Below are positions 4,999-63,840 of a stretch of DNA of 64,000 nt, piece by piece (position 1 is the first letter of the stretch; each line of letters starts with the position of its first letter). Position numbers and translations under genes: made by a program. Under the pieces are notes generated by a model. It saw only the letters and a program-made list of their open reading frames with translations, was not told the DNA's origin and did no database searches. The DNA comes from a virus, in the IMG/VR virus record IMGVR_UViG_3300049139_000233, positions 28,596-92,595 of that record. One strand, given 5' to 3'.

Positions 4999-5040
4999 GA
5001 TGACTTAATTAAACCATAGTTCTCGTACCTGGACAACCCC
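4999..5040 (-). promoter_or_regulatory. P-box promoter/operator
   Basis: Minus strand reads GGGGTTGTCC-N12-TATGGTTTAATTAAGTCATC, 47 nt upstream of ATG 4952. Confidence 0.6.
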
Positions 5041-5050
5041 GGACACAACG

Positions 5051-5100
5051 AAGCCCCGGGACTGGATGTCCCGGGGCTCACGCGGCGCGGCGGTCAGGCG
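5051..5100. repeat. 50-bp direct repeat, copy 2
   Basis: AAGCCCCGGGACTGGATGTCCCGGGGCTCACGCGGCGCGGCGGTCAGGCG. Confidence 0.8.
5052..5078 (-). terminator. hairpin terminator
   Basis: The same 27-nt hairpin, downstream of the ATP-grasp stop at 5094. Confidence 0.6.
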
Positions 5101-6101
5101 TCTGCACCCCCTCGCTGCCACGCAGCCCCGGATGATGCGCGGTGGCCACCACCAGGGACGTAGACGTGGGTCGCGAGAGCGGTCTGCACGAGGTGGTCGG
5201 AGATGGCCCGCGCGATGACCATGCCGGTGGCGGCCTCCACGAACCCCCACTGGCCGGCCGGGTTCGCCTCCAGGAACCACCACGTGCCGTCCCGGTCGAC
5301 CGCGAAGTCCAGGGCCGCGTACTCCAGGTGCAGCTCGCGCATCAACCGCATGACCTTGTGGGCCAGCGGCTGGCTGAGCCCCACGGCCTCGAACCTCAGA
5401 CCGTCCTCGGGCACGGCCCGCCAGTCGAGCGCGTTGCCCGCAGTGATCCGGCACGGGAACATCCGGTCGCCGACCACGGTCAGCCGGATGTCGTACGCCT
5501 TGTCCACCGGCTGCTGGAAGTAGCACATGGACTGGCGCACGCTGTCGGCGCCTTCCTTGATCTCCCCGGCGGTCACCATCCGCGCCTGGACGAACCGGTC
5601 GGGGTGGGCCGTGAGCGTCTTGCACACGACCCGTCCGCCCTGCTCGCGGGCGAACTCGGCGGCCTGGGCCGGGTCGTTGGTGTACAGCGCCGGCGGGGTG
5701 CGGAAGCCGAGCGATGCGGCCAGCCGCAACTGCCGGGGCCCCGGCCGGGCCTGGAGAGCCCGGACGGGGTGGTTGACCCAGAGCACGTTGTCGAGGCCGT
5801 ACAAGAAGTCGTCCAGGATGACCCGGGACTCCTGCTGCTCCCACGTGCCGGGCGGCTCCGGGTGCCACCAGAACACCGACACGACCGACTGGGAGAGCGT
5901 GGTGCGGTGCTCGTCCTCAACCCGGAACCGCAGCGGTTCCCCGTCCGAAAGGCCCGTCATCCGCAGGACCCCCGGACGTGCGAGGTCTGCGGGGTCGATG
6001 CGGTGCACGACGACCTCGCGCTCCTGGATCTGCCGTATCACCAGGTCGGCACCGAGGTCGTCGGGCGCGGTGACCACGAGCACAGTCGGCGGGAGTGGCA
6101 T
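5094..6101 (-). CDS. ATP-grasp RiPP maturase (microviridin MdnB/MdnC-type, graspetide synthetase)
   Basis: The N-terminal segment VLVVTAPDDLGADLVIRQIQEREVVVHRIDPADL...VSVFWWH fits a leader-binding pre-ATP-grasp domain. Also present are LWVNHP...RQLRLAASLGFRTPPALYTNDP...VVCKTL and LDFAVDRDGTWWFLEANPAGQWGF. The start overlaps the stop of the upstream small ORF as ATGA. Confidence 0.8.
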   Translation of the reverse strand: MPLPPTVLVVTAPDDLGADLVIRQIQEREVVVHRIDPADLARPGVLRMTGLSDGEPLRFRVEDEHRTTLSQSVVSVFWWHPEPPGTWEQQESRVILDDFLYGLDNVLWVNHPVRALQARPGPRQLRLAASLGFRTPPALYTNDPAQAAEFAREQGGRVVCKTLTAHPDRFVQARMVTAGEIKEGADSVRQSMCYFQQPVDKAYDIRLTVVGDRMFPCRITAGNALDWRAVPEDGLRFEAVGLSQPLAHKVMRLMRELHLEYAALDFAVDRDGTWWFLEANPAGQWGFVEAATGMVIARAISDHLVQTALATHVYVPGGGHRASSGAAWQRGGADA

Positions 6102-6358
6102 CAGTCGTCGTCCTTCTTCAGTCCGGTGGCGTTGTGGGTCATGGTCGGGCCGACCAGCATGTACGAGGTCGAGAAATCGTCGTCCTTGCGGAACCCCTGG
6201 TGGTTGTGCGTGTGCGTGGTGGCCCGGATGTCGGCGACGTCCACCACGGCGTCACCGGACGAGGTGACGTTGAGCTGGCGGAGCGGGTCGTAGGTGAACG
6301 CAGGCGTCCGGTCGGCGGGCGGCGCGGGGGTCTCGGCGAGAAGCGCGAAGGCAGTCAT
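6101..6358 (-). CDS. putative graspetide precursor peptide (85 aa)
   Basis: Internal ATG at 6358 in track ORF 6101..6442. Leader: MTAFALLAETPAPP...AFTYDPLRQLNV. The C-terminal core is rich in Thr/Ser/Lys and Asp: HQGFRKDDDFSTSYMLVGPTMTHNATGLKKDDD. It is translationally coupled (ATGA) to the ATP-grasp gene. Confidence 0.6.
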   Translation of the reverse strand: MTAFALLAETPAPPADRTPAFTYDPLRQLNVTSSGDAVVDVADIRATTHTHNHQGFRKDDDFSTSYMLVGPTMTHNATGLKKDDD

Positions 6359-6450
6359 GAAGTAACCCTTCGAGTGGGGCCGTTCGGGCACGGCCCGTTC
6401 CTGTGTTCCGTGTTCCGTGCGCGTCGCCGGGCGGGTCGACAATCCCGGCG

Positions 6451-6494
6451 ATCATGGATTAATTAAACCATGGTTGTGTGATGCACGCAACCCC
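6451..6494 (-). promoter_or_regulatory. P-box promoter/operator of the graspetide cassette
   Basis: Minus strand reads GGGGTTGCGT-N12-CATGGTTTAATTAATCCATGAT. Confidence 0.6.
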
Positions 6495-6506
6495 TGAACA
6501 CGCCAA

Positions 6507-6534
6507 AGCCCCGGTGCCTTTCCGGCCCGGGGCT
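6507..6534 (-). terminator. hairpin terminator
   Basis: AGCCCCGG-N12-CCGGGGCT, downstream of the XRE gene stop. Confidence 0.55.
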
Positions 6535-6554
6535 CAGGGTTGGGTGGCAGCCGG

Positions 6555-7835
6555 TCACAGCCGCGCGGCCACCTGCTCGCGCAGCTCGGCGGCGGCCGGC
6601 GAGTCGGGGACCGACGGCAGCCGTGCAGCCACCGTGGCCAGGCCGTCGGAGATCTTCGTGGACTGAACGCCGGCGGAGCACTCCAGGAAGTCGGACCACG
6701 TCGCCAGCGCCTCGCCCGTGTTCCCCCGCTTGAGCTGCACGTGACCGAGGTCCGCCAGCACGATGGCGCGGGTACGCCGGCGGTCCAGACCGTGGATGTC
6801 CAGGGAGAGGTGCAGGTGCTCCTCGGCGGCGGCCAGGTCGCCGAGCCGGGCGAGGATCATCCCCGATTCGTGAGCCCACCGGCCGTGGCTGTAGTGGCTC
6901 GCCCACGACTGCCCCGGCGCGGCCGGTGCGTGCTCCATGGCGCCCTGCGCGGCGGACAGCATCCGAGCCGCCGTGGCACGGTCGCCGTCGGCGGCCTTCG
7001 CGCGGGCGAGCGTGTTGCGGTAGTAGGCCAGGGCCTTCGGGTTGTCCAGTCGCCGCCCGCGCTCCTCGCACGCCTCCGCCAGACGCACGGCGGTGGGGAC
7101 GTGGCCGAGGTCGATGGCCTGGTCCGCGAGACCGCGCAGCGCCGTCGCTGCCAGCTCGTTCTCCCCGGCCTCGGTGGCCAACCGCACGCTGTGCACGAGG
7201 TAGCGCTGGCTCAGCCCCACACTGCCCTCGTCCCGGGCCATCCACCCGATGAGGTGCACCAGTTCCGCCGTCGCCGCGAACAACTCGCGGCCGACCTTCT
7301 CGGTGTACTTCCCGTCCAGCCAGCGGCGAACGTCCTCGGTCAGGTAGCGCACGGCGAGGTGCCGCGCGTGCCCGCCGCCCAGCTCCGACGCCGCGTCGCC
7401 CAGGGTGCCGGTCATCGTGCGCACGGCGGAGACCTCGCCCATGCCGACGGCCACCGGCCCCGGGCGCGCCACGCGCCGGGTGACCGCGTCGGTGTCCGGC
7501 AGGTCGAGCGCTGCGAGCCCGGCGGCGGCCGACGCGGTCAGGAAAGTGCGGCGGTCCACGTCGTCTCCCCCAAGGGTCATCACAGAGGTCACGGTGTCGT
7601 CCGGGGCCGGGCTGTCTCCGCCCCGTGAGAGGTCCAGGCCCAGGGCCTGCTCGATGTACGGCAGCCATTCCACCGGCACGCGCCGGCCGGTCTCCCACCG
7701 GTACACCTGCTGACGGTCGCAGAACCCCCGGCTGCCCCAACGCAGTTCCGATAACTGGTCCGCGAGGGCGGCCTGGCTGCACCGTGGCCGCCGGGCCTCT
7801 CGGGCGGCGCGGATGCGTTCGCCGATTGTCGACAT
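6555..7835 (-). CDS. XRE-family HTH transcriptional regulator with TPR-like C-terminal domain (candidate phage repressor)
   Basis: N-terminal HTH: IGERIRAAREARRPRCSQAALADQLSEL...VYRWETGRRVP. A long helical repeat region follows (LGDLAAAEEHLHLSLDI..., LKRGNTGEALATW). ATG at 7835 follows AGACCGAGGAAACGAC. Confidence 0.8.
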   Translation of the reverse strand: MSTIGERIRAAREARRPRCSQAALADQLSELRWGSRGFCDRQQVYRWETGRRVPVEWLPYIEQALGLDLSRGGDSPAPDDTVTSVMTLGGDDVDRRTFLTASAAAGLAALDLPDTDAVTRRVARPGPVAVGMGEVSAVRTMTGTLGDAASELGGGHARHLAVRYLTEDVRRWLDGKYTEKVGRELFAATAELVHLIGWMARDEGSVGLSQRYLVHSVRLATEAGENELAATALRGLADQAIDLGHVPTAVRLAEACEERGRRLDNPKALAYYRNTLARAKAADGDRATAARMLSAAQGAMEHAPAAPGQSWASHYSHGRWAHESGMILARLGDLAAAEEHLHLSLDIHGLDRRRTRAIVLADLGHVQLKRGNTGEALATWSDFLECSAGVQSTKISDGLATVAARLPSVPDSPAAAELREQVAARL

Positions 7836-8407: not shown

Positions 8408-8785
8408 TCAGGGGCGGGGGACTTCCTTCTCCACGCGGCCGACGGCGTCCAGGCCGGTCATCACCAGGTGGATGCTGTTGGCGATGTCCATGAGCAGGTC
8501 ACCGGCCCGGCCGCGCTCCTCACTCACCTCGCGAGTCTCGATGGTGCGGTGGTTGATGCGGCGGACACCGGCGAGGCGGGAGCCGGTGCGGCCAATGCGG
8601 GCGGCCAGGCCGGACAGCGGGTTGTTCTCGTCGTAGCGGTAGCCGTAGCCGTCGGCGGTGATGTAGTCGATGATGCCGGGGATGCCGTAGACCTTGTGCT
8701 CGGCCAGGGTGTCCGCGTAGTGGCTCAGGATGGCGCCGATGTAGAGCATGGCGGGGGCGGCGGCGCGGGTGGCGGTGGCGGTCAT
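8408..8785 (-). CDS. hypothetical protein (125 aa)
   Basis: ATG at 8785 follows a SAS-like leader, with a P-box at 8831..8873. Confidence 0.6.
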   Translation of the reverse strand: MTATATRAAAPAMLYIGAILSHYADTLAEHKVYGIPGIIDYITADGYGYRYDENNPLSGLAARIGRTGSRLAGVRRINHRTIETREVSEERGRAGDLLMDIANSIHLVMTGLDAVGRVEKEVPRP

Positions 8786-8830: not shown

Positions 8831-8873
8831 CGATGAATTAATTAAACCATGGGGTCTCGCAAAGAACAACCCG
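8831..8873 (-). promoter_or_regulatory. P-box promoter/operator
   Basis: Minus strand reads CCGGGTTGTTC-N12-CATGGTTTAATTAATTCATCG. Confidence 0.6.
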
Positions 8874-8953: not shown

Positions 8954-8997
8954 GGGGTTGCGCGGCAGGGGTCGGCATGGTTTAATTAATCCATGGG
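8954..8997 (+). promoter_or_regulatory. P-box promoter/operator
   Basis: GGGGTTGCGC-N12-CATGGTTTAATTAATCCATGG. It is divergent from the 8831..8873 copy. Confidence 0.6.
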
Positions 8998-9023: not shown

Positions 9024-9254
9024 ATGAGCGCTCAGACCACCACGTGCACGGAGAAGACGGCCAGCCGATGGCACTCGCCCGACCCGTTCGGGGTCTGGGG
9101 TGAGCGTGACCCGAACCCGGTGGACCCGGGCCCGTACCGCGACGGCGAGACCATCGAGTGCCGGACGTGCGGTGCCACCGTCGTCGTGACGCACCGGATC
9201 ACCAACAAGCGCGCGACCGGCACGCAGTACGTCGGCGACCTCGCCGCGCACTGA
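9024..9254 (+). CDS. hypothetical small protein (76 aa), CxxC-containing
   Basis: ATG at 9024 follows GACCAGGGAACGAGGACCGC. There is a P-box at 8954..8997 and a terminator at 9266..9300. Confidence 0.6.
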   Translation: MSAQTTTCTEKTASRWHSPDPFGVWGERDPNPVDPGPYRDGETIECRTCGATVVVTHRITNKRATGTQYVGDLAAH

Positions 9255-9344: not shown

Positions 9345-10427
9345 GTGACCACCACGATCACGACCACCGGCGCCGGCAGTCCCCTCCTCGCCTCCGCGAT
9401 GCACGACCACCTCGCCTCCCTGCGCGAGCGGCTTGGCGTGGTCCGGCCGCGCGACCGCCGCACCCGCCGGCTCAGCCCGCCGGTGTACCGGCTGGACCTG
9501 CTGCACGAGCTGGTGGAGCGCGAGACGTTCGAGCACGTCGTCACCTGGCTGCGGTCGCGCCGCTCCGACGGCACCGCCCGGGAGTACGCGGATGACGTCC
9601 GGCACTGGGCCCTGGCCGGGCGGGAGTTGTGCGGCACCGAGCCGTGGTACCTCGGCTCCATCACCCCGGACGTCATTCCGGTGTGGCGCGGATGGGCGAC
9701 GGAGGATCTGGGGCTGCGCGGCCGGCGGGTCAACCGGCTCTGCTCCTCTCTCACCTCGCTGATCGAATGGGTGAAGTACCAGACCCGCCAGGAGCTGATC
9801 CACCCCATCACCCGGTACGACCGGTTCAAGGTCGACCCGGACGACGAGTCGTCCATGACCCCGATCCTGGAAGTCGCCGAGCTGCAAGCCGTGCTGAACG
9901 CGTGCGACACGGCCCGGCAGGCGTTCGCGGTCTCCCTGATCTACACCCTGGCAGGCCGCGTCTCGGAGTGCTGCGACGCCGGCGCGGATGACCTGTCCTC
10001 GGAGTCGGGGACGTGCGTGCTCACCTTGCGGCGCAAGGGCGGCAAGACGGTGCCGTTCCCGCTGCCGGCGGAGCTGTGCGAGCTGGGCGCGGCGGCCTGG
10101 CGGGGCAGCACGAGCACGGCGCTCCTGCTCGATGACGACGGCCGGCCGATGGACCGGCACGCGGTGGACCGGCTGCTCAACCGCCTCGGCCGGACGGCCG
10201 GTGTCCTGCCCGGCCGGGACCTCACCCCTCACGTCCTGCGCGCGAGCAAGCTGACCCACATGTACGACGAGGGCACGGCGCCGGACGACATCCGCCGGTT
10301 CGCCGACCACGCGAACGTCTCCACGACCATGCGGTACATCCGGCGCCGCACGAACGCGGGTCTGCGCGCGAAGCACACGCAAGCGGCCGTGAAGGTGTAC
10401 GAGGGCCTGGTGAACCGGTTCCTGTGA
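9345..10427 (+). CDS. int: tyrosine recombinase / integrase
   Basis: C-terminal catalytic region: ...LTPHVLRASKLTHMYDEGTAPDDIRRFADHANVSTTMRYIRRR (R...HxxR...Y pattern). The N-terminal SAM-like domain contains ...VIPVWRGW.... The GTG start at 9345 is uncertain; ATG 9399 is an alternative. Confidence 0.85.
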   Translation: MTTTITTTGAGSPLLASAMHDHLASLRERLGVVRPRDRRTRRLSPPVYRLDLLHELVERETFEHVVTWLRSRRSDGTAREYADDVRHWALAGRELCGTEPWYLGSITPDVIPVWRGWATEDLGLRGRRVNRLCSSLTSLIEWVKYQTRQELIHPITRYDRFKVDPDDESSMTPILEVAELQAVLNACDTARQAFAVSLIYTLAGRVSECCDAGADDLSSESGTCVLTLRRKGGKTVPFPLPAELCELGAAAWRGSTSTALLLDDDGRPMDRHAVDRLLNRLGRTAGVLPGRDLTPHVLRASKLTHMYDEGTAPDDIRRFADHANVSTTMRYIRRRTNAGLRAKHTQAAVKVYEGLVNRFL

Positions 10428-10767: not shown

Positions 10768-10793
10768 GGTCAGTTCCTCCGTGGTCCGTGTTC

Positions 10794-10834
10794 CTGATTT
10801 GATTAAATCATGCTTCGGCCGGGACGGCAACCCC
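10794..10834 (-). promoter_or_regulatory. P-box promoter/operator
   Basis: Minus strand reads GGGGTTGCCG-N12-CATGATTTAATCAAATCAG. It overlaps the 3' end of the exonuclease gene. Confidence 0.55.
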
Positions 10835-14435: not shown

Positions 14436-14460
14436 AGTGATTTGGTTAAGCCGTACCCGG
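14436..14460 (-). promoter_or_regulatory. degenerate P-box
   Basis: Minus strand reads GTACGGCTTAACCAAATCACTCGG, between the terminase stop and ATG 14413. Confidence 0.3.
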
Positions 14461-14472: not shown

Positions 14473-15843
14473 TCACCCGATCGTCCGCGTAGCAGAGGCG
14501 AGGCCCCTGGACGACACCGTGCCGGTCACCGTCGGCTTCACGATCCGCTGGTGCCAGGCCGGCCAGACCATCGCGTCCAGCCGGTCCGGTGACCAGTCCA
14601 GCTCGTCGTACCAGGTGCAGAGCTGGTCTTCCAGTTCTTCGTACGTCCCGGCCATGTGCCAACGGCCCTGCTCGGTCAGGGCGCTCACCGGTTCCGCGCG
14701 GACCTTCTTGCCCCTGGTTGCGCGCACCACCTTGATGGGGATGTTGATGCCCATGGCGTCGGCGGCGGCCCGGATGGTGTTGACTGCCATGTCTCCGCCG
14801 AAGTTGACCTCCACGCAGATGTCGTCAGCCTCGTAGTCGATGGCCGCCTGCACCGCGCGCCGGCCCCAGCCGTCCGGCGACAGGCGGCAGGTGCGGTCGG
14901 CGAGCACGTAGCCGTGGGCGAGGTTCACCTTCCGGCCGTCGGTCCGGACGTGCTCCAGCATCGCTTTGCCGTCCACGATGATGCCCTGTTCGCCCCGGCC
15001 GCCCGAGGGGTCCACGCCCACGGACTTGCGCACCATGTGCGGCAGGTCGCTGGGGCGCACACGCGTGGTGTCGAGCATCGCGCGGGTCCACAGCGCGTTC
15101 TCGTCCTGGTCGATGACCTCCGCGTACAGCTCCTGACGGCCGATCTGCGTACCGCCGTACGCGTCCTCCAGCGCAGTCCGGATGTCCTCGGGCAGGTGGG
15201 GGTTGTCGTACGTCGTCGCCCGGGTGACGACCGTGTTCGGTATCTCACCGGCCGTCAGCCGCTTGATGAGGGCACGCGGCTTGGGGGTGGTGGAGGCGAC
15301 CCAGTGCGGGCGGGTCCCGGCGCGCAGACCGAAGCGCATCTGGTCCCACGTCTGGTCCAGGTACCTCCACGCCGCCAGCTCCTCGGCCCACACAACGCAC
15401 CGGTTACCGCCGGACCGCAGGCGTTCGACGTCCTCGGGTGAGTGCGACCCGAATACCTTCGCCTCGCTCCCGTTCGGCCAGCGGATGACTGTGCCGCCCT
15501 GCGCCGTGGTCATCCGCGCCTCGGGGCTGTGCACCCGAAGCCCGGAGGGCCCCGCGTAGCAGGACGTGACCGCGTCGCCGAGGGTCGGGGCGATGATGCC
15601 GACCCAGTGCGGGACGGGACCGGGCAGGCACGGCGGGCCCGTGACGTGCTCGTGGATGTACCGCGCGCAGGCGTCGGTCTTTCCGGCGCCGCGTCCGGCC
15701 ATCAGCAGCCAGCCGTACCAGTCACCGGGCGGCGGGACCTGGTGGGGCAGCGGGGTCCATCGCGGCTCGGTCAGGGTGCGCGCGTGCATGAGCAGCTTCT
15801 CCGCCGCGCGGGTCCTCAGCCTCGCATCCACCATGCCGGTCAT
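14473..15843 (-). CDS. terL: terminase large subunit
   Basis: Walker A LLMAGRGAGKTD and Walker B-like VVWAEELAAW. Nuclease half: VGVDPSGG, VEVNFGGD, SPDRLDAMVW. I prefer ATG 15843 (MTGMVDARL...). Confidence 0.9.
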   Translation of the reverse strand: MTGMVDARLRTRAAEKLLMHARTLTEPRWTPLPHQVPPPGDWYGWLLMAGRGAGKTDACARYIHEHVTGPPCLPGPVPHWVGIIAPTLGDAVTSCYAGPSGLRVHSPEARMTTAQGGTVIRWPNGSEAKVFGSHSPEDVERLRSGGNRCVVWAEELAAWRYLDQTWDQMRFGLRAGTRPHWVASTTPKPRALIKRLTAGEIPNTVVTRATTYDNPHLPEDIRTALEDAYGGTQIGRQELYAEVIDQDENALWTRAMLDTTRVRPSDLPHMVRKSVGVDPSGGRGEQGIIVDGKAMLEHVRTDGRKVNLAHGYVLADRTCRLSPDGWGRRAVQAAIDYEADDICVEVNFGGDMAVNTIRAAADAMGINIPIKVVRATRGKKVRAEPVSALTEQGRWHMAGTYEELEDQLCTWYDELDWSPDRLDAMVWPAWHQRIVKPTVTGTVSSRGLASATRTIG

Positions 15844-17131: not shown

Positions 17132-17947
17132 TCAGACGGTGGCCGGCTCGGGCAGCAGGCCGTGCTCGCGCGCCTTGCGCAGGGCGGCGGGCAGGCGTGA
17201 GCCCTTCTCCATCCACGCCACATCCAGGCGCCGGTACGCCTCGGACAGCCGGGTGGAGCAGGTGCCCCGGGCGAGGCCGAGGCGCTGCGCCGTCTCGGCG
17301 AGGGTGGCTCCGGACTCCATCTCCAGCAGCACCCTGGCCTGCGTGTCCGACAGCCGGACCTCGCTCTGCGGGCTGCGGGGGCGCGGCGGCGGCTCGCTGC
17401 GCAGGAGGCCGCGCATCCGGGCCTCACGCAGGGCCACCTCGCGGCGGACCGCAGGCGGGAGCTGGGAGACACCGAGTGCGGCGTAGGCCTCGGCGGTGAG
17501 GGTCTTCACGGTCCGGTGGCTGACGTTCCACGCCTGGCACACCTGCGCCTGTGTGCGCCCCGCGTCGAACGCGCGCAAGAGGCGTACGTGCGGCTCCGTG
17601 AGCCGGACCGGGCGGCGGGTGGCGGCGTCGGCTTCCATGCGTTCTCGGTTGCCTCGCTTGCAGGCGGCGCACACGGGCTCGTCTCGTTTGATGTGGCGCC
17701 GGTAGGCGGCGAGGAGCCCGCAGTCCTCGTACGGGCCGATGTGCCCGGCCAGCAGGCCGTCCCGGACGGCCTGCGCGGCGGTGGTCACACCCATCACCTC
17801 ATAGATCCGGGCGCAGGTTTTCCGTATGACGCTGGGCGCCCGGTTCGTCTTGCGGGCGATGTCCGCACAGGTGTGCCCGGTGGACAGCAGCCACAGGATG
17901 CGTCGTTGACCTTCCGTCAGGATGACGACCGGTGACGCGGAGTCCAT
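17132..17947 (-). CDS. DNA-binding protein with three tandem LuxR/GerE-type HTH modules
   Basis: Three repeats: LTEGQRRILWLLSTGHTCADIARKTNRAPSVIRKTCARIYEVMGV; LTEPHVRLLRAFDAGRTQAQVCQAWNVSHRTVKTLTAEAYAALGV; LSDTQARVLLEMESGATLAETAQRLGLARGTCSTRLSEAYRRLDV. ATG at 17947 follows GGAAAGGGG. Confidence 0.7.
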   Translation of the reverse strand: MDSASPVVILTEGQRRILWLLSTGHTCADIARKTNRAPSVIRKTCARIYEVMGVTTAAQAVRDGLLAGHIGPYEDCGLLAAYRRHIKRDEPVCAACKRGNRERMEADAATRRPVRLTEPHVRLLRAFDAGRTQAQVCQAWNVSHRTVKTLTAEAYAALGVSQLPPAVRREVALREARMRGLLRSEPPPRPRSPQSEVRLSDTQARVLLEMESGATLAETAQRLGLARGTCSTRLSEAYRRLDVAWMEKGSRLPAALRKAREHGLLPEPATV

Positions 17948-18059
17948 GCGGACCACCCCTTTCCGTAGATTGGAGTGGACCCCGGGTCACGTCCACTGAC
18001 CCGGGGTCCTGTCGACCGGCACCGGCCCGGGGTCTCTCCTCCGGGTCCACCGGGACACT

Positions 18060-50241: not shown

Positions 50242-50251
50242 CCGCCGGGCT

Positions 50252-50818: not shown

Positions 50819-50861
50819 GGGGTTGTGCAGCCGACCGGACTATGATTTAGTTAAATCAGTC
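50819..50861 (+). promoter_or_regulatory. P-box promoter/operator
   Basis: GGGGTTGTGC-N12-TATGATTTAGTTAAATCAGTC. Confidence 0.6.
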
Positions 50862-51684: not shown

Positions 51685-51698
51685 TTCGCGTTGAGGCC

Positions 51699-51738
51699 TT
51701 GCGCGGACACCCCGCCCATGGTTTAGTTAATTCATCGG
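51699..51738 (+). promoter_or_regulatory. P-box promoter/operator
   Basis: TTGCGC-N12-CATGGTTTAGTTAATTCATCGG. Confidence 0.55.
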
Positions 51739-52372: not shown

Positions 52373-52402
52373 TCGCACCACCGACCAAGGAATGAGGAAG
52401 CG

Positions 52403-53077: not shown

Positions 53078-53113
53078 CAGACACCGCACCACCGACCAAG
53101 GAACGAGGAACAC

Positions 53114-54109: not shown

Positions 54110-54152
54110 GGGGTTGTCTCGCCGGCCACCGTGTGATTTAATTAAGTCATCG
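54110..54152 (+). promoter_or_regulatory. P-box promoter/operator
   Basis: GGGGTTGTCT-N12-TGTGATTTAATTAAGTCATCG. Confidence 0.65.
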
Positions 54153-54177: not shown

Positions 54178-54903
54178 ATGGACCGCAGCAACGTCGCCGG
54201 CCACGACGGCACCGTCCACCAGGCCCTGCTCAACTCCCGCACCGCCAAGTTCATCGACGTCGCGTGTGACGCCGGCCGCTACGCCGTCGTCCGGCCCTAC
54301 GAAAAGCTGGACCAGGCCCGCCTCACCAACGACGCGCTGACCTGCCCCGGCTGCACGGCCGCCGTCGCCGGCGACGTGGACCACCCGGCGGACGTCGCCC
54401 GCCGGTGCGCGGACGCGGTGCTCGCCGACGCCGACCGGCGCGGCTACCCCGCCTCCCCGGACGACGAGGCGCTGCGCCAGGCGTTCGTACGACTCGCCCC
54501 GACCGGCGAGGAGCTGCGCCCGGTGTTCGAGCGTCTCGCCCGGGGCGTGTACGACCCGGAGAACGACTTCCGCACCGAGCCGCTGTACGCGCTGATCCGG
54601 GAACACCTCGCCGACGCACTCACCGCGCGGGCGCTGGACGTGGCGGATCCGATCCCCGGAGCAACGGCCCGGTACACCGCCTTCACCGGCGGAGACGTCG
54701 TCGCACCGCTCGCCGTCGGCGACCGGGTGATGCGCACCGCCTACGCCTCCGGACTGTGGTGGTTCGGAACCATCACCGGGACCGACGGCGGGACCGTCCT
54801 CGTCTGCGAGAGCGGGCACGCGACTCCGTTCCGGTACCAGGTGAGCGAGATGAACGGACTGTTCGCCAAGCTGGACCGCGCGCCGGTCCCGGCCGCCGTC
54901 TGA
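54178..54903 (+). CDS. hypothetical protein (241 aa)
   Basis: P-box at 54110..54152; GATCAAGGAATCGAGGAACAC leader. Confidence 0.6.
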   Translation: MDRSNVAGHDGTVHQALLNSRTAKFIDVACDAGRYAVVRPYEKLDQARLTNDALTCPGCTAAVAGDVDHPADVARRCADAVLADADRRGYPASPDDEALRQAFVRLAPTGEELRPVFERLARGVYDPENDFRTEPLYALIREHLADALTARALDVADPIPGATARYTAFTGGDVVAPLAVGDRVMRTAYASGLWWFGTITGTDGGTVLVCESGHATPFRYQVSEMNGLFAKLDRAPVPAAV

Positions 54904-54914
54904 CGATCCGCCAC

Positions 54915-54948
54915 CGAAGCCCCGGCGCCCTCGTGGCCCGGGGCTTCG
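54915..54948 (+). terminator. hairpin terminator (GCCCCGGCGCC family)
   Basis: CGAAGCCCCGG-cgccctcgtggc-CCGGGGCTTCG. Confidence 0.65.
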
Positions 54949-54988
54949 TCATGCGGTGATTCGGCGGATCGCCGCTACCTTCCCGCGC

Positions 54989-55711
54989 ATGACGCAGACC
55001 ACCCCGCCCCTGGCGGTCCTCGTCCCCACACGCGGCCGGCCGCACAACGCCGTCCGGCTCCAGCAGGCGTTCGCCGACACCGAGTCGCTGAACGCGGAGC
55101 TGGTCTTCGTGGCCGACGCCGACGACCCGGAACTGCCCGCCTACTGGACAGCCGCCGGGGACCGGCTGATCCGGCATCTCACGGTCCACGACGGCGAGAC
55201 CGGCACCGGCATGGCCGCCGCGCTGAACCACGCGGCCGGCCGGTTCGCCGGCGAGTACGCCGCGCTGGGGTTCATGGGCGACGATCACCTGCCGCGCACG
55301 CCCCGGTGGGACGCGCACGTCCTCGGAGCACTGAACACCGCCGAGCCGGCCGTCGTCTACGGCAACGACCTGTTCCAGGGGGCGGCGCTGCCGACGGCAG
55401 TGTTCATGCCGTCCCGGCTCGTGCAGGCCCTCGGCTTCATGGCGCCCCCGGTACTGCGGCACCTGTACGCGGATGACTTCTGGCTGGAGCTGGGGTGGCA
55501 TCTCGGGACGCTGCGGTATCTGCCGGACGTCGTCATCGAGCACCTGCACCCGGCAGCGGGCAAGACCGCCATGGACGACCGGTACGCGGCCGTCAACGCT
55601 CCCGGGGCCGATGCGGCGGACCGGCGCGCCTGGCAGACGTTCCGGGACGGCGGCGGCTTCACCGCCGCGCTGAGCCGCGTGCTGGACGCCTACGGGGAGG
55701 CGGCGGCATGA
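54989..55711 (+). CDS. putative GT-A fold glycosyltransferase
   Basis: LAVLVPTRGRPHNAVRL...FVADADDPEL...FMGDDHLP. ATG 54989 has no SD or P-box; a TACCTT lies 7 nt upstream, so the mRNA may be leaderless. Confidence 0.5.
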   Translation: MTQTTPPLAVLVPTRGRPHNAVRLQQAFADTESLNAELVFVADADDPELPAYWTAAGDRLIRHLTVHDGETGTGMAAALNHAAGRFAGEYAALGFMGDDHLPRTPRWDAHVLGALNTAEPAVVYGNDLFQGAALPTAVFMPSRLVQALGFMAPPVLRHLYADDFWLELGWHLGTLRYLPDVVIEHLHPAAGKTAMDDRYAAVNAPGADAADRRAWQTFRDGGGFTAALSRVLDAYGEAAA

Positions 55712-56646
55712 CCCGGCCCCGGGCTCTGGTGACCGGCGACCGGGGGTTCCTCGGCCGGCACTTCACGGCGGAGCTGAAGCGGCGGGGCTACGACGTCGTG
55801 GGCTGCGACGTGAAGGTGACCCGCAGTCAGGACTGCCGCCGGCTGTTCGCCGAGGACGTCCGGCTGCGGACGATGCCGCACTGGGACCTCGTCGTGCACT
55901 GCGCGGCGGTGGTCGGCGGCCGGGAGACCATCGACGGCGACCCGCTCGCCACGGCGGAGTCGCTGAGCATCGACGCGGAGATGTTCCGGTGGGCGGCCGT
56001 CGCGCGGCCCGGCCGCGTGCTGTACTTCTCCAGCTCGGCCGCGTACCCGGTCAACCTTCAGCACGGCACCCCGCCGTACCGGCTGCATGAGGACGACGTC
56101 TGGGACACCGCCCGGGATGACGACGGTCCGGTACCCGGCACGTTCTGGGACGTGTCCGAGCCGGACCAGGTGTACGGCTGGTCCAAGGTGACCGGCGAAC
56201 TCCTCGCGGCCCGGCTGCGCGAGACCGGCGTCCCGGTGACTGTGGTGCGGCCGTTCTCCGGGTACGGCGAGGACCAGGACGTCACGTACCCGTTCCGCGC
56301 GATCCTGGAGCGCGTCCGGCGCCGCGAGGACCCGCTGGAGGTCTGGGGGTCCGGCGAGCAGGTGCGCGACTGGATCCATGTGGACGACGTCGTGGCCGGG
56401 GCGCTGGCCGTCGCCGACGCGGGCACGACCGAACCGGTGAACCTGTGCACCGGCCTGGCGACGTCGTTCCTGGACCTGGCGCGGATGATGGCGGCGGTTG
56501 CGGAGTACCGGCCCAAGGTGCGGCCCCTGCCCGGCCGTCCGGCCGGCGTGGCGTACCGCGTCGGGGACCCGGCCCGGATGCACCGCTACTACCGGCCCCG
56601 GGTGCGGCTGGAAGACGGGATCCGGCGCGCACTGGAAGCGGTCTGA
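55708..56646 (+). CDS. NAD-dependent NDP-sugar epimerase/reductase (extended SDR)
   Basis: ATG at 55708 overlaps the upstream stop (ATGA). Motifs: ALVTGDRGFLGRH and YGWSKVTGE (YxxxK). Confidence 0.8.
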   Translation: MTRPRALVTGDRGFLGRHFTAELKRRGYDVVGCDVKVTRSQDCRRLFAEDVRLRTMPHWDLVVHCAAVVGGRETIDGDPLATAESLSIDAEMFRWAAVARPGRVLYFSSSAAYPVNLQHGTPPYRLHEDDVWDTARDDDGPVPGTFWDVSEPDQVYGWSKVTGELLAARLRETGVPVTVVRPFSGYGEDQDVTYPFRAILERVRRREDPLEVWGSGEQVRDWIHVDDVVAGALAVADAGTTEPVNLCTGLATSFLDLARMMAAVAEYRPKVRPLPGRPAGVAYRVGDPARMHRYYRPRVRLEDGIRRALEAV

Positions 56647-56651: not shown

Positions 56652-56694
56652 GGGGTTGCCCCGTCGGCTGACCTATGATTTAATTAAGTCATCG
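56652..56694 (+). promoter_or_regulatory. P-box promoter/operator
   Basis: GGGGTTGCCC-N12-TATGATTTAATTAAGTCATCG. Confidence 0.65.
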
Positions 56695-57212: not shown

Positions 57213-57425
57213 ATGGCAGTCAGGAACGAGACTCGGTTCGTCAGCCCCATCGGCCAGCGCGTGAAGGCGTGGACCGGACCGAGGGCCGGACGCACCGGGG
57301 AGATCAAGCGCGTGGACGGACTGCACTACGTGTACGTCCTGTTCGACGGCGACACCACCGAGGTGCACTACCCGTGCAAGGACGTCAGCCGGCTGGACCT
57401 GCTCAAGCAGTGGGGCCGGGCATGA
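57213..57425 (+). CDS. hypothetical protein (70 aa)
   Basis: GACCAAGGAACGAGGAGCACCGA leader. Confidence 0.6.
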   Translation: MAVRNETRFVSPIGQRVKAWTGPRAGRTGEIKRVDGLHYVYVLFDGDTTEVHYPCKDVSRLDLLKQWGRA

Positions 57426-57619
57426 GCGGCTTCAGGTGCATCGCCACCACATCGCGCGGCTACGGCTGCATCAACAAGGCACAGCCCGGCCAGCTCATGT
57501 GCCCGGCGCACGACCCCTCCCGCCAGTGCGGCGCCCCCACACGGGCCGGAGGGCAGTGCAGGCGGATGAAGATGCAGGGGCATCCCCGCTGCTCGAAGCA
57601 CCTCCCGAAAGATGCCTGA
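57422..57619 (+). CDS. hypothetical Cys/His-rich protein (65 aa) with an internal duplicated C..C..C..H motif
   Basis: ATGA overlap. RCIATTSRGYGCINKAQPGQLMCPAH and QCGAPTRAGGQCRRMKMQGHPRCSKH. Confidence 0.55.
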   Translation: MSGFRCIATTSRGYGCINKAQPGQLMCPAHDPSRQCGAPTRAGGQCRRMKMQGHPRCSKHLPKDA

Positions 57620-57626
57620 CAGTTGG

Positions 57627-57666
57627 ACAGAAAGCCTCGGAGCCGTACGGTTCCGAGGCTTTCTGT
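57627..57666 (+). terminator. hairpin terminator
   Basis: ACAGAAAGCCTCGGA / TCCGAGGCTTTCTGT. Confidence 0.7.
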
Positions 57667-57668
57667 AT

Positions 57669-57712
57669 GGGGGTTGTCCAGCCTCCGGAGTGATGGTTTA
57701 ATTAAGTCATTG
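57669..57712 (+). promoter_or_regulatory. P-box promoter/operator
   Basis: GGGGGTTGTCC-N12-GATGGTTTAATTAAGTCATTG. Confidence 0.65.
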
Positions 57713-57804
57713 CACGGCCGACCAAGGAACCCGGCTGAGCCACGGACCCCGGCCCCGGAGGCACTGCGCCTCCGGGGCCTCCCCGATCAAGGAAACGAGG
57801 AATC

Positions 57805-58137
57805 ATGGCGACGCAGTTCGACCCTCCGCGCTACACCTGGCACGCGCAGACGGTACGTGAGGCGCTGACCGTCTTGGGCGCCGTCCAAGACCTGGTCGAC
57901 GCTCACCTGAAGTCCCTTGAGCCCGGCGACGGGGTCAGTCGCTCGGACGTCTCCAGGGCGACGCCGATCTCCCTGACCGTCGCCCTGGACCTGTCCGGCC
58001 TCGTCCAGGCCGTCAACGACAAGACGGAGGTGGAGCACCTGGAGACCGTGCTGGAGCTGCCCGCCGACATCTGCTGGTGTGGCCGGGAGAAGCAGCCCGG
58101 CGAGAACCACTCGATGTGCTACCCCGGGATGGAGTGA
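57805..58137 (+). CDS. hypothetical protein (110 aa)
   Basis: GATCAAGGAAACGAGGAATC leader. Confidence 0.6.
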   Translation: MATQFDPPRYTWHAQTVREALTVLGAVQDLVDAHLKSLEPGDGVSRSDVSRATPISLTVALDLSGLVQAVNDKTEVEHLETVLELPADICWCGREKQPGENHSMCYPGME

Positions 58138-58143
58138 GACGCC

Positions 58144-58347
58144 GTGAAGCGGCCCGCCTTCGCCTGGGACCCCGAGGTGGATCCGTTCGGTCCGTGGGAG
58201 TACGTGGAGGTTGACGACCGGTGCCGGGGCCACGGGGACGCGTGCATGTTCAATCGTTGCACCGGCCGGGAGTCCACCTGTCGGTGCTGCTGTCCGGTCT
58301 GCCTCGGCGAGACGCCGGAGGACTACGGTTTCGACCCGTACGACTGA
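58144..58347 (+). CDS. hypothetical Cys-rich protein (67 aa)
   Basis: GTG start. Contains CRGHGDAC...CTGRESTCRCCCPVC. Confidence 0.55.
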   Translation: MKRPAFAWDPEVDPFGPWEYVEVDDRCRGHGDACMFNRCTGRESTCRCCCPVCLGETPEDYGFDPYD

Positions 58348-58369
58348 CCAAGGAAACGAGGAACGCGCG

Positions 58370-58600
58370 ATGGCGTACATCCTGACCCGCACGCTGCCTG
58401 ACGGCACCGAGAAGACGAACCCGACCGAGCTGAAGACGCTGCGCGAAGTGGAGTTCGCCGTCGCGTACTGCTTGATGGACAACTCCCGCGTGCCGCGCGG
58501 CGAGGCCCGCCGGTTCGCCGCCGGCTTCATCGGCCGGCCGATCGGCGAGACGCTGAAGCACGAGACGTCCGGCTACGCCTTCCGCGTCGACCGCGTGTAG
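58370..58600 (+). CDS. hypothetical protein (76 aa)
   Basis: GACCAAGGAAACGAGGAACGCGCG leader. Confidence 0.6.
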   Translation: MAYILTRTLPDGTEKTNPTELKTLREVEFAVAYCLMDNSRVPRGEARRFAAGFIGRPIGETLKHETSGYAFRVDRV

Positions 58601-58656: not shown

Positions 58657-58700
58657 GGGGGTTGTCCCGTCGGCTGACCTATGATTTAATTAAGTCATCG
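58657..58700 (+). promoter_or_regulatory. P-box promoter/operator
   Basis: GGGGGTTGTCC-N12-TATGATTTAATTAAGTCATCG. Confidence 0.65.
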
Positions 58701-60053: not shown

Positions 60054-60097
60054 GGGGTTGTCCCCTCGCAGAGCCTATGATTTAATTAAGTCATCGG
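60054..60097 (+). promoter_or_regulatory. P-box promoter/operator
   Basis: GGGGTTGTCC-N12-TATGATTTAATTAAGTCATCGG. Confidence 0.65.
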
Positions 60098-60145
60098 AAC
60101 GGCCGGCCGGCCGGAACGACGGACCAAGGAATCGAGGAACCGACC

Positions 60146-61123: not shown

Positions 61124-61156
61124 TGTGCCCCGGGGTTGTCCGAGCCCTGGGGCACA
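61124..61156 (+). terminator. hairpin terminator enclosing a -35 block
   Basis: TGTGCCCC...GGGGCACA. Confidence 0.45.
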
Positions 61157-61178
61157 GGTATGATTTAGCTAAATCGAC
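61132..61178 (+). promoter_or_regulatory. P-box variant with 17-bp gap
   Basis: GGGGTTGTCC-N17-TATGATTTAGCTAAATCGAC. The -35 block sits in the loop of the hairpin at 61124..61156. Confidence 0.5.
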
Positions 61179-61222
61179 TGGCCGTTAGGCCAGAGACCAA
61201 GGAACCAGGAAAGTAGGGCCCC

Positions 61223-61687: not shown

Positions 61688-61689
61688 TC

Positions 61690-62196: not shown

Positions 62197-63191
62197 ACAG
62201 TGCCGCCCAGGTCACCGAGATCTTCGCCGGTATCGGCTTCAGCGAGGTGCTGCGCACCCTGGGTCTGCGGAGCTGTGGCCTGGAGATGGACGCGGCCACG
62301 TGCGCGACCAGGCGGGCCGCGAAGCACCTGACGACCGAGTGCGACGTCACGCAGCACCCTACGGCTCCGTTCGCCGGAACGGAGGGGCTGATCGGCGGGC
62401 CCCCGTGCCCGCCCTTCGGCAAGTCCGGGCGGAAGCTGGGGCTCACCGACCTGCCGCTGGTCCACGAGGCGGTGGACGACCTCGCGCGGGGTGTCGACTC
62501 CCGGGCACGGCTCGGCGCCGGGTGCCTGGACCCCCGGTCCATCCTGACCGCCGAACCGGTGCGGTGGCTGTACGGCCTGCGCCCGCAGTGGGTGGTCCTG
62601 GAGCAGGTCGACAGCGTGCTGCCGGTGTGGGGGCACGTTGCGGAGATCCTGGAGCGCTGGGGCTACAGCACGGCGGCCGGCGTGCTGCACGCCGAACGGT
62701 ACGGCGCCGGGCAGTCGCGGCCACGGGCGATCCTGCTGGCGTCCCGGGTCCGCGAAGTAGCCTTGCCCGCGCCGACGCACGGCGGCCCCGGACAGCCGCC
62801 GCTGGTCGCCATGGCGGACGTCATCGGGTGGGGGTACACCCGGCGTCCCTCCCCGGCGGTGACCGGCGGCGGGGTCTACACCGGCGGAGCCGAGCCGTTC
62901 GGCAACGGCTCCCGGCAGGCCATGCGGAAGGTCATCGGCACGGACGCCTGGCAGGACCGCAGGCCGCTGTGCGGCCGGGAGCACGGCGAGCCGGACGAGC
63001 CGTGCGGGCACCTGCGGCCGTCGCTTGCGGAGTGCGCGGCTCTCCAGGGGTTCCGGCCGGACCTGGTCTTCCACGGCAAGTCCGGGCAGCAACACCTCCA
63101 GGTCGGAAACGCGGTCCCCCGCGCCCTGGCTCGCGCGGCGGTTCTCGCAGCGTCCGGGGCCGGGGAGCGGGTGCTGGAGGCGGCGGCGTGA
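62193..63191 (+). CDS. dcm: DNA (cytosine-5) methyltransferase
   Basis: ATGA overlap. Motif I EIFAGIGF, motif IV GGPPCPPFG, motif VI VLEQV, motif VIII QSRPRAILLA, motif X VGNAVP. Confidence 0.85.
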   Translation: MNSAAQVTEIFAGIGFSEVLRTLGLRSCGLEMDAATCATRRAAKHLTTECDVTQHPTAPFAGTEGLIGGPPCPPFGKSGRKLGLTDLPLVHEAVDDLARGVDSRARLGAGCLDPRSILTAEPVRWLYGLRPQWVVLEQVDSVLPVWGHVAEILERWGYSTAAGVLHAERYGAGQSRPRAILLASRVREVALPAPTHGGPGQPPLVAMADVIGWGYTRRPSPAVTGGGVYTGGAEPFGNGSRQAMRKVIGTDAWQDRRPLCGREHGEPDEPCGHLRPSLAECAALQGFRPDLVFHGKSGQQHLQVGNAVPRALARAAVLAASGAGERVLEAAA

Positions 63192-63370
63192 GCGCCGTCA
63201 CCTACCCGGCCGTCCGGTGCGACGGGCGGCCGGGCTGTTCCGCAGAGACGAACCATCCGATGGCGGCCACTGTCTCCGAGGTACGCCGGTACCGCCGGGA
63301 CGAGGGCTGGCACACTCGACCCGGCGGCCGGGACATCTGCCCCGACTGCTGGGCGGCCGGCCGCCGCTGA
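63188..63370 (+). CDS. hypothetical small Cys-containing protein (60 aa)
   Basis: GTGA overlap with the methyltransferase stop. Confidence 0.5.
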   Translation: MSAVTYPAVRCDGRPGCSAETNHPMAATVSEVRRYRRDEGWHTRPGGRDICPDCWAAGRR

Positions 63371-63395
63371 CGACGAACACGGAAGTGAGGAACCG

Positions 63396-63731
63396 ATGCC
63401 GCATCACCACCAGACGACCGAGAACTTCGACCCGGGTTGTCCACACTGCCGCGAGGAGACGGCGCGGTACTGGGCCGACGTGGAGTCCTGGAAGCTGCGC
63501 ACGGCCGCCGAGATGGCCACCGACGGCACCGGACGCATCTCCCCGTCGGCGTTGATGCGCCGGCTGAGCCAGGACCACGGCGTCCGGGTCACGTTCGAGG
63601 AGTCGCAGACCCTGCTCGGAAAGCTGGAGACCGCTGGCGTGGTCGGCCCTGTCGACCCGCGTAAGCACGCGCACCTGGTTCTGATGGATCGGGTGCAGGC
63701 TCTGTCCGCGCTGGGCCTGCCGGTCGTCTGA
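63396..63731 (+). CDS. FtsK-gamma-like winged-helix DNA-binding protein
   Basis: CPHC near the N-terminus. ISPSALMRRLSQDHGVRVTFEESQTLLGKLETAGVVGPVD resembles the FtsK gamma domain. Confidence 0.5.
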   Translation: MPHHHQTTENFDPGCPHCREETARYWADVESWKLRTAAEMATDGTGRISPSALMRRLSQDHGVRVTFEESQTLLGKLETAGVVGPVDPRKHAHLVLMDRVQALSALGLPVV

Positions 63732-63747
63732 GCGACTGAACAGCACG

Positions 63748-63789
63748 ACGACGAAGCCCCGGCGCCTGCGCGGCCCGGGGCTTCGTCGT
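63748..63789 (+). terminator. hairpin terminator (GCCCCGGCGCC family)
   Basis: ACGACGAAGCCCCGG-cgcctgcgcggc-CCGGGGCTTCGTCGT. Confidence 0.7.
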
Positions 63790-63793
63790 GCCC

Positions 63794-63840
63794 GGGGTCT
63801 TGCGCTGCACCGCCGTGAAGTGCTTTAGTTAAATCACTGC
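63794..63840 (+). promoter_or_regulatory. P-box promoter/operator
   Basis: GGGGTCTTGCGC-N12-AAGTGCTTTAGTTAAATCACTGC. Confidence 0.55.

Follow-up and report, generated by a model that had tools for sequence, protein, structure and literature searches.

We analyzed a 64,000-nucleotide stretch of viral DNA (positions 28,596 to 92,595 of IMG/VR record IMGVR_UViG_3300049139_000233; here, the window) in which a composite element resembling a promoter fused to an operator recurs between genes. The window has a G+C content of ~70%, and its genes run leftward from ~34.5 kb and rightward beyond that point. Phage functions are encoded (a large terminase, a portal protein, and a Mu F-like protein), as are a primase-family A polymerase fusion, a helicase, a tyrosine integrase, and a ParB-like protein (24782-25525). 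A TraB-like FtsK-family translocase is encoded at 47620-49605 (NCBIfam plasmid_TraB, 1.9e-92, below the equivalog cutoff). The sole near relative among annotated records was pS1D4-14.2, a 98.8-kb extrachromosomal element of a soil Streptomyces, in which the ParB-like gene is conserved; PLSDB held one related plasmid only. On the basis of the phage genes, the TraB-like translocase, and this extrachromosomal relative, we read the window as about two-thirds of a putative conjugative (TraB-like) Streptomyces phage-plasmid of ~92 kb. The same motif was found on whole contigs of 92 to 96 kb from other Streptomyces genomes and from IMG/VR.

Copies of the element are intergenic, oriented, and bunched

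A full copy is a 43-bp signal of the form GGGGTTGYSC-N12(13/17)-YATGRTTTAATTAANTCAT. Twenty-five sites were counted in the window, 16 full copies and 9 palindrome-only variants, which bears out an earlier sequence-only reading of this DNA that had put the number at 24 or more. The 21-mer TATGATTTAATTAAGTCATCG had 8 matches at ≤3 mismatches compared with 0 in 100 shuffles, TTTAATTAA had 12 matches at 11 loci (expected, 0), and the 16-mer core was found at 21 loci at ≤4 mismatches. Scored with a 54-nucleotide position weight matrix, 16 sites reached 22 to 72 bits; the shuffle maximum was 5.7 bits. The TTG stands exactly 12 bp ahead of YATGR in 14 copies (5001, 6455, 8834, 10795, and 29122 on the minus strand; 8978, 50275, 50843, 51719, 54134, 56676, 57694, 58682, and 60078 on the plus strand), and these are the same 14 for which an invariant gap had been reported. 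The gap is 13 bp at 63821 and 17 bp at 61161, both on the plus strand. The example singled out by the sequence-only reading, at 8976-8996 (CATGGTTTAATTAATCCATGG), is exactly as it was described there.

The motif is not as frequent inside genes as between them: all of the 21 sites tested fell within the 14% of the window that is noncoding, each facing a downstream gene. Every one of the 16 full copies, along with the oriented variants checked, aims at the gene that follows it. In pS1D4-14.2, which carries ~15 full and 9 weak copies, ~24 sites were likewise intergenic and faced the downstream gene.

The copies had been said to divide the genome and to allow essentially all cassettes to be switched at once, and here their distribution calls for a narrower statement. 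Ten full copies are bunched at 50 to 64 kb, in the region immediately following the traB-like gene, and five more at 5 to 11 kb, in the neighborhood of the integrase and a variable regulator cassette. The sixteenth, at 29 kb (29122), is the only full copy between 11 and 50 kb; the other sites there are palindrome-only variants. The replication and transfer modules have palindrome-only variants and no full copies, and in pS1D4-14.2 the 36-kb block running from the integrase through the tail genes had zero copies, so that the virion genes are without the element. The repeats are a real, family-wide regulon signal, and the regulon comprises accessory, early, integration, and regulator genes, not the whole genome. 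As a separate observation, the TraB-like translocase gene sits within a phage genome, with the majority of the promoter-operator copies just downstream of it.

The left part of the element has promoter geometry

Positions within the element are given as an index counted from the T of TGRTTT; a TTG at index -20 corresponds to 17 bp from TTGNNN to TTTAAT, and the -10 hexamer occupies indices 3 to 8. Across the window and its relatives we collected 159 core sites, of which 111 (88 unique) have the TTG at exactly index -20. A wide alignment reveals a longer module: often a GC-rich hairpin, then GGGGTTGYSC, 12 bases without conservation, YATGRTTTAATTAANTCAT, and a leader, followed by GACCAAGGAAnGAGGAAC and the start codon. 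Between the 16-mer core and the start codon the leader spans 25 to 95 nucleotides (nt), and it ends in the shared ribosome-binding region GACCAAGGAAnGAGGAAC.

Terminator-like hairpins lie directly upstream of ~9 of the 16 window copies. Five of these were returned by a strict hairpin finder, with stems of 12 to 18 bp that end 7 to 14 nt ahead of the TTG, and four more were recognized by eye; RNA folding z-scores of the upstream regions, spacers, and leaders were uninformative in DNA of 70% GC. In some relatives the hairpin is shifted onto the spacer, with the TTG in its loop and the distance unchanged. The sequences of spacers and hairpin stems vary from copy to copy, which argues that the copies are kept by selection on function and not by recent duplication.

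The spacing can be judged from a neutral tally of GGTTG offsets, in which unique copies fell at index -20 (82 copies), -21 (3 copies), -25 (5 copies), and -26 (2 copies). Among the unique copies with an intact GGTTG, 82 therefore have a 17-bp spacer to TGnTTTAAT and 3 have an 18-bp spacer. In the five copies of the -25 class (the window site at 61161, its orthologues in three relatives, and one unrelated site), the TTG has moved by exactly 5 bp and is then 17 bp from TATGAT or GATGAT, with TTTAAT decayed to TTTAGC or TTTAAG. Because these copies restore 17 bp to an alternative hexamer, the TTG appears to act as a -35 placed 17 to 18 bp from whichever hexamer serves as the -10. Among the 88 copies selected for a TTG at index -20, G is found in 82 to 87 at indices -23 to -21 and the TTG is followed by Y, S, and C, while the TG one base upstream of the hexamer is retained almost throughout (T in 86 of 88, G in 88 of 88). 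The proposal that TTG is a -35 lying 17 bp from TGnTTTAAT is supported by these counts.

The same cannot be said of the further claim that this is a strong sigma-70/HrdB-type promoter. The hexamer is TTTAAT or TTTAGT; it has the T at -7, but -11 is T in 88 of 88 copies, and a scan with the sigma-70 consensus accepted only the shifted copy (61136-61164) and no other. To judge from the sequences, a strong HrdB promoter is unproven and the -10 is unorthodox.

A second family shares the left part of the element

A genome-wide pattern search returned a second family (fam2) with the same core, distinct from the phage-plasmid family (fam1). It occurs on large chromosomal contigs of ~45 Streptomyces, Kitasatospora, and Streptacidiphilus genomes (loci L064, L071, L085, L105, L166, L171, L173, L190, L206, and L208 and ~55 others). 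Here the element reads GGTTG(A/C)CC-N8-AAGAACATGGTTTAATTAATGGTGTCGGAAGGGGGAGGGCAACCCCCCGACCGACACC, followed by a second hairpin and a ribosome site, with up to four or more copies per genome and several per island, ahead of genes for ParB-like, DUF3560, and DUF6409 proteins. ArdC-like genes may also lie downstream of copies of this family.

We gathered 93 unique copies by using only CATGGTTTAATTAATGRTG, that is, the -10 region, so that the TTG played no part in their selection. A TTG was nonetheless found at the same offset in 91 of the 93 (TTG-17-TGGTTTAAT), as TTGCCC in 42 and TTGACC in 25, in 59 different upstream contexts; the TGG is invariant. At the position of the right half stands TAATGGTG, which has no symmetry. 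In the 8-kb flanks that were sampled, no protein was common with the window except for one generic NsdA-family match. The leaders of this family matched no Rfam family and gave nothing in a tRNA scan, and no model strain, in which a start might have been mapped for a copy, was among the matches.

Since TTG-17-TGGTTTAAT is common to unrelated elements, it is probably read by something that they share, for which host RNA polymerase would be the simplest candidate. The palindromic completion is specific to the phage-plasmid family, because the second family is without right-half symmetry. The shared core poses the question of which actinobacterial polymerase form reads a -10 without A at -11.

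A palindrome overlies the proposed -10 hexamer

The core of the phage-plasmid element, TGRTTTAA followed by TTAANTCA, lies within an 18-bp palindrome with the half-sites ATGRnTTAA and TTAAnYCAT. Conserved mirror pairs are found at indices (-1,16), (0,15), (1,14), (4,11), (5,10), (6,9), and (7,8), and indices 2 and 13 are partly symmetric. The sole strong asymmetry is at index 3, which is T in 88 of 88 copies, while its mirror, index 12, is A in 18, G in 41, and T in 29. This asymmetry is explained if the -10 hexamer overlies a symmetric operator.

As a control for ascertainment, we searched by the left half only (TTG-N17-TGnTTTAnT) and obtained 89 unique matches. The right half was near-invariant in them (T82 A89 A89 N T83 C89 A86 T69 of 89, or 78 to 100% per position). 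Symmetric conservation beyond what RNA polymerase needs, as the sequence-only reading had maintained, thus holds for TAAnTCAT in the phage-plasmid family and is absent from the second family.

In the palindrome-only variants, the outer GATTTA...TAAATC is retained and the center is relaxed, and they adjoin ordinary TAnnnT hexamers (TACGAT, TAGGGT, and TAGGAT). A distant relative, L228, has GATTTA..TAAAYC palindromes beside ordinary -10s (for example, TAGATT-GGATTTAGGTAAACCG) and no full copy in its 17 kb, which indicates that the palindrome and the unusual -10 are separable. Since the palindrome is centered at about -7.5, a bound dimer would be expected to repress and not to activate.

Candidate regulators

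The best candidate for a palindrome binder is, on suggestive evidence only and at what we judge to be well short of an even chance, an 88-amino-acid (aa) AT-hook winged-helix protein encoded at 43570-43836 on the plus strand. Its winged helix matches Pfam HTH_24 (2.7e-7), and a structure model places a disordered arm at the N terminus. This arm includes RGRPRP, unchanged in each of 20 homologues with identities as low as 42%. RGRPRP is the core of the AT-hook, which binds the minor groove of AT-rich DNA. The gene is a core gene of the family, and its own promoter bears the variant palindrome CGATTAAGGTAAATCA. The winged-helix protein of L228 is 49% identical to it. Covariation of this protein with the palindrome was sought in distant relatives, where the half-sites were unchanged, so the comparison was uninformative.

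Two other proteins had been named as possible regulators. The XRE-TPR protein (6555-7835, minus strand) belongs to the NsdA family (NF053720, 7.5e-89) and lies within the variable cassette. We consider it an unlikely binder because it has no homologue in pS1D4-14.2, which carries the same motif in ~15 full and 9 weak copies and has an unrelated XRE gene instead. The triple-HTH protein (17132-17956, minus strand; the triple-LuxR protein of the sequence-only reading) is conserved and, like the 88-aa protein, co-occurs with the motif in relatives; it consists only of LuxR/sigma-region-4-like repeats and matches a PHROG annotated as "sigma factor" as well as sigma-70 region 4 models. However, it heads the lysin/terminase block behind two variant palindromes, and we read it as a probable target, perhaps a late regulator, sooner than as the binder. 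Ahead of its gene, the segment 17957-18098 holds the two tandem variant palindromes and then a leader of ~100 nt that contains strong hairpins, including a terminator-like one. Two relatives have kept this arrangement, an indication that the triple-HTH gene is under special control.

Weighing the explanations

We consider it somewhat probable that the composite promoter/operator is a self-contained transcription-control module through which one regulator governs many cassettes. Under this explanation, a GC-rich, tail-poor terminator hairpin would often close the preceding cassette, and host RNA polymerase would read GGGGTTGYSC as the -35, a free spacer of 17 bp, and TGnTTTAAT as the extended -10. 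The start is predicted at the invariant CA ~7 nt past the hexamer. A dimeric protein from the conserved backbone of the element would bind the palindrome (about -16 to +2), occlude the -10, and so repress ~16 cassettes together. Through the weaker palindromes beside ordinary TAnnnT promoters, genes for replication, transfer, and regulators would come under this control as well. Repression would persist once the plasmid or prophage is established, and it would be lifted upon entry into a naive cell or upon induction.

Several points weigh against this explanation. Literature searches on the motif and on Streptomyces phage-plasmids yielded no start-site, binding, or expression study of the family. 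A homologue of the 88-aa candidate is found in phage L226, where no such palindromes occur within ±10 kb, and other conserved small proteins are possible binders (a 76-aa HTH protein at 34308-34538, the ParB-like protein at 24782-25525, and the product of 28551-29120). C14 and A15 are invariant, which is compatible with a -1/+1 pair, and this invariance could come partly from start-site preference instead of from an operator. The -10 also carries T at -11, a position that is A almost universally, and does not match TAnnnT. Of the nAnnnT hexamers, YATGRT alone is conserved in both families, and it lies only 12 bp past TTGNNN. These last two facts speak for a rival explanation, in which YATGRT (indices -2 to 3) is the -10, GGGGTTGYSC, 12 bp upstream, is an activator box that replaces the contacts of sigma region 4 (as with T4 MotA/AsiA or PafBC "sigma adaptation"), and TTTAATTAA is the melted or start region. 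Activator boxes of this kind lie ~12 bp (MotA) or ~8 bp (PafBC) upstream of a good TAnnnT -10 and work without a -35, and the fixed 12-bp gap resembles that of the MotA-box promoters of T4. However, the supposed A at -11 (index -1) is present in 72 of 88 copies (82%), equal to its mirror T at index 16 (69 of 88), which marks it as an outer operator position. In addition, the box is often a consensus -35 (TTGACC or TTGCCC), and the other offsets are only +1 and +5/+6, which fits a 17/18-bp rule for two hexamers and not a 12-bp rule. No candidate activator common to both families was found in the sampled flanks. Because of the mirrored A, the -35-like box, and the offsets, we rank this explanation second and consider it unlikely.

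The uniformity of 21 contiguous conserved bases is itself phage-like, and one could suppose that the whole block is the promoter of a sigma factor or polymerase encoded by the element, its palindromy being incidental. The matches of the triple-HTH protein to sigma-factor models agree with this. Against it, no RNA polymerase gene was found among the proteins scanned, the triple-HTH protein has region-4-like repeats and nothing resembling region 2, and the second family employs the same left part without a homologous protein in the sampled flanks. The right half also differs between the families, while TTG-17-TGGTTTAAT is common to both; such a promoter seems to us very unlikely. Still more improbable, in our judgment, is that the repeats act mainly at the level of DNA, as recombination borders at which cassettes are exchanged or as sites, centromere-like or for packaging, that a ParB-like protein would use, with promoter activity secondary. 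It is true that, compared with pS1D4-14.2, the window often has replaced cassettes between copies but retains the modules on either side, that the ParB-like gene is conserved, and that the 16-bp palindrome shares its length and outer bases (TGnTTnAn) with parS-type sites. These points are offset by the strict co-orientation with genes, by the fixed classes of distance to TTG and start codons, and by the divergent spacers and stems, which mark the copies as kept by function and not by recent copying. Moreover, the ParB-like protein matches Spo0J only weakly, and where it aligns it reads GNHT instead of the GERR arginine patch.

A broader proposal, compatible with the two-family comparison, is that TTGNNN-17-TGGTTTAAT(TAA), with T at -11, forms a distinct promoter class of Streptomycetaceae mobile elements. 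It would occur in at least two unrelated families (the ~92- to 99-kb phage-plasmids and the islands with ParB-like, DUF3560, and DUF6409 genes), depend for its recognition on a dedicated host sigma factor or on some atypical mode of the housekeeping holoenzyme, and may be related to the phiC31 early promoters that share GGGTTGCC. The phage-plasmid would then have added a site for an AT-hook winged-helix repressor, giving a burst of anti-defense and establishment genes upon entry into a new cell. We offer this proposal tentatively and regard it as rather doubtful.

Individual sites in the window

Among the full copies of the left arm, the one at 4998-5040 (minus strand; TTGTCC-N12-TATGGTTTAATTAAGTCATCG; 64 bits) would drive 4716-4952 and then 3794-4525 and the portal genes; a terminator-like hairpin with a 12-bp stem ends 14 nt upstream of it. 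Just downstream of the XRE-TPR gene, the copy at 6452-6494 (minus strand; TTGCGT-N12-CATGGTTTAATTAATCCATG; 48 bits) faces 6101-6391 and 5094-6083. A divergent pair follows, with one member at 8831-8873 (minus strand; 53 bits) directed toward 8408-8785 and the other at 8954-8996 (plus strand; core CATGGTTTAATTAATCCATGG; 46 bits) directed toward 9024-9254 and the integrase gene at 9345-10427. The copy at 10792-10834 (minus strand; core TGATTTAATCAAATCA; 50 bits) precedes a small gene ending at 10486 and has an orthologue at 48261 in pS1D4-14.2. At 29119-29161 (minus strand; 47 bits), downstream of the primase-polymerase gene, a copy serves 28551-29120 and the long operon behind it; its orthologues are found at 31332 in pS1D4-14.2 and in L114.

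The remaining full copies are all on the plus strand. Exact 21-mers are found at 50251-50293 (63 bits), 56652-56694 (66 bits), 58658-58700 (72 bits), and 60054-60096 (69 bits), the last with a 13-bp-stem hairpin upstream. Between them lie the copies at 50819-50861 (core TGATTTAGTTAAATCA; 58 bits) and 51695-51737 (upstream block GGCCTTGCGC and core TGGTTTAGTTAATTCA; 55 bits), the latter preceded by a hairpin with a 15-bp stem that ends 12 nt upstream. The copy at 54110-54152 (63 bits), with a 17-bp-stem hairpin upstream, is placed to drive a glycosyltransferase/epimerase operon (54178-56646), and the copy at 57670-57712 (56 bits) has a 95-nt leader and a hairpin with an 18-bp stem ending 7 nt upstream. 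The shifted allele at 61132-61179 has the canonical arrangement TTGTCC-17-TATGAT, its palindrome decayed to TGATTTAGCTAAATCG; L005, L008, and L037 have the same form, whereas the orthologous site in other relatives retains the 12-bp gap. The last copy, at 63796-63839 (core TGCTTTAGTTAAATCA; 22 bits), has a gap of 13 bp, equivalent to an 18-bp spacer.

Of the palindrome-only variants, CGGCTTAACCAAATCA at 14438-14453 (minus strand) has GGGTA ahead of it and lies just downstream of the terminase gene. The tandem pair upstream of the triple-HTH gene, GGATTTAACTAAATGA and TGGTTTAACAAAACCA, occupies 18059-18098 on the minus strand, with sites beginning at 18059 and 18083, and is conserved in L026 and in pS1D4-14.2 (39538/39562). 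The variant at 36838-36853 (plus strand) overlaps GGGTATGAT, and the one at 42525-42540 (minus strand) follows GGGTATGTC and is directed toward 41936-42502. At 43522-43537 (plus strand), CGATTAAGGTAAATCA stands 32 nt upstream of the AT-hook winged-helix gene, an arrangement repeated in pS1D4-14.2 (14754) and L229. The variant TGATTTAGGAAAATCA at 45641-45656 (plus strand) comes directly after TACGAT, a TAnnnT hexamer, and precedes 45699-46937. Two sites were assigned no strand. One is GGGTTTAACTAAATCC (40862-40877), which with N8 and GGGTATCATAAAAGCACACGGAAC forms a block at 40862-40910 directly after the gene for a 1,081-aa protein and is conserved in pS1D4-14.2 (17432) and L229 (3069); the other is a half-degenerate palindrome at 46950-46965 that abuts the terminator hairpin of 45699-46937.

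Other features of the window

A further repeated sequence, GACCAAGGAA, was found 42 times in the window at ≤1 mismatch, compared with 1.9 expected, and 40 of the 42 are on the coding strand of their arm. With a rough gene finder, 27 cases fell within 40 nt (mostly 10 to 20) upstream of start codons; examples are 4966-4975, 27090-27099, 33787-33796, 37587-37596, 52383-52392, 53094-53103, and 60122-60131. It also stands ahead of many genes that have no promoter element, and it resembles either a start-associated sequence or a doubled Shine-Dalgarno element. The start-associated sequences of cluster K mycobacteriophages are conserved motifs of ~10 to 13 nt just upstream of many start codons, independent of promoters; GACCAAGGAA is like them in placement and differs in sequence and host.

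Genes that are neighbors in the window (57213-58600) match opposite ends of the pS1D4-14.2 record (401-610 and 98316-98534), which was deposited as linear, and we therefore take the element to be circular or circularly permuted. The large terminase gene is whole in the window (14473-15843), while an HNH endonuclease gene splits the pS1D4-14.2 version (42355-44559). Phage-plasmids of the pZL12 type were considered and set aside as distant relatives only (terminase identity of 37 to 40% over ~40% of the length), and a megablast search of the 48- to 64-kb region against a phage collection gave no match. At 22951-24785, adjoining the ParB-like gene, two adjacent paralogues match phage "queuine tRNA-ribosyltransferase" families (PHROG 887; 1e-50 and 2.6e-41); the pair is absent from pS1D4-14.2 and may be part of a 7-deazaguanine DNA modification module. 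In addition to the NsdA-family XRE-TPR regulator, the variable cassette (5094-7835) encodes a 96-aa protein with a weak Strep_pep match (below the Pfam threshold) and a protein with a weak match to a PHROG annotated as "ribosomal protein S6 glutaminyl transferase"; in pS1D4-14.2 its place is taken by an unrelated XRE gene together with one annotated as encoding a PH-domain protein. PHROG scans of the cassette genes assigned almost no functions, and Rfam and tRNA scans of the window found nothing. By PHROG, the C-terminal part of the 1,081-aa protein is exonuclease-like; the protein has no relative of solved structure.

Relation to known systems and significance

The organization of phiC31 is the closest known parallel. 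In its sequence (AJ006589, L041), which we read directly, there are at least 8 intergenic copies of CCGGGTTGCCGACTYCCTTAC and several of the palindrome CCTACTCACGTGAGTAGG, with GC-rich hairpins before many of them. We take these to be the mapped early promoters, the CIR repressor sites, and the tail-less terminators that the Smith laboratory reportedly described (Ingham et al., 1993/1995; Smith et al., 1999). As in the window, a temperate Streptomyces element has its nonstructural genes in small units, with a repeated promoter, an intergenic palindrome, and hairpins without a U-tail. However, the promoter and palindrome are separate in phiC31, whereas the palindrome here contains the -10; the sequence downstream of GGGTTGCC is unrelated, as is CIR (CCTACTCACGTGAGTAGG) to the palindrome described here. 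The CCGGGTTGCCGACTYCCTTAC blocks of phiC31 (intergenic, 21.5 to 36.3 kb) start with the same GGGTTGCC as the -35 block of the present element, and in some relatives the match reaches GGGTTGCCGAC. A tblastn search with the phiC31 repressor gave no match in the window or in pS1D4-14.2, the phiC31 early proteins have no homologue in the window, and only primase and polymerase match (22 to 26% identity). Literature searches for the phiC31 early promoters yielded nothing usable.

In plasmid RK2, the small dimeric protein KorA binds an AT-rich palindrome, GTTTAGCTAAAC, over the -10 of many promoters and, together with KorB operators, coordinates replication, transfer, and maintenance. KorA appears to be the closest functional analogue: here too a short AT-rich palindrome covers the -10 of many plasmid promoters, and the TTTAGCTAAA core recurs in the variant at 61161 (ATTTAGCTAAAT), although the hosts belong to different phyla and the operator has 18 bp here compared with 12. 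Another comparison is with stoperators, asymmetric 13-bp sites that block elongation within transcribed regions and for the most part do not serve as promoters. Those of mycobacteriophage L5, cluster A, and R4-like Streptomyces phages also number ~20 to 30 in short intergenic regions and are oriented with transcription, but the present site is symmetric, keeps a set distance from TTG, and forms one unit with a promoter. With extended -10 sigma-70 promoters the element shares the TG, the TTG, and the 17-bp spacer; TTTAAT fails the rule of A at -11.

What is new here is a variant of the design known from phiC31 and RK2, with the -10 placed inside the palindromic site, in a phage-plasmid. The module is a ready-made insulated part for Streptomyces engineering that combines terminator, promoter, operator, and ribosome site in ~120 bp. 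If the proposed explanation is true, one short DNA module and one small protein would control ~25 transcription units of a conjugative phage-plasmid family of soil Streptomyces, and they would provide a direct handle on the choice between plasmid maintenance, transfer, and lysis in these hybrid elements.

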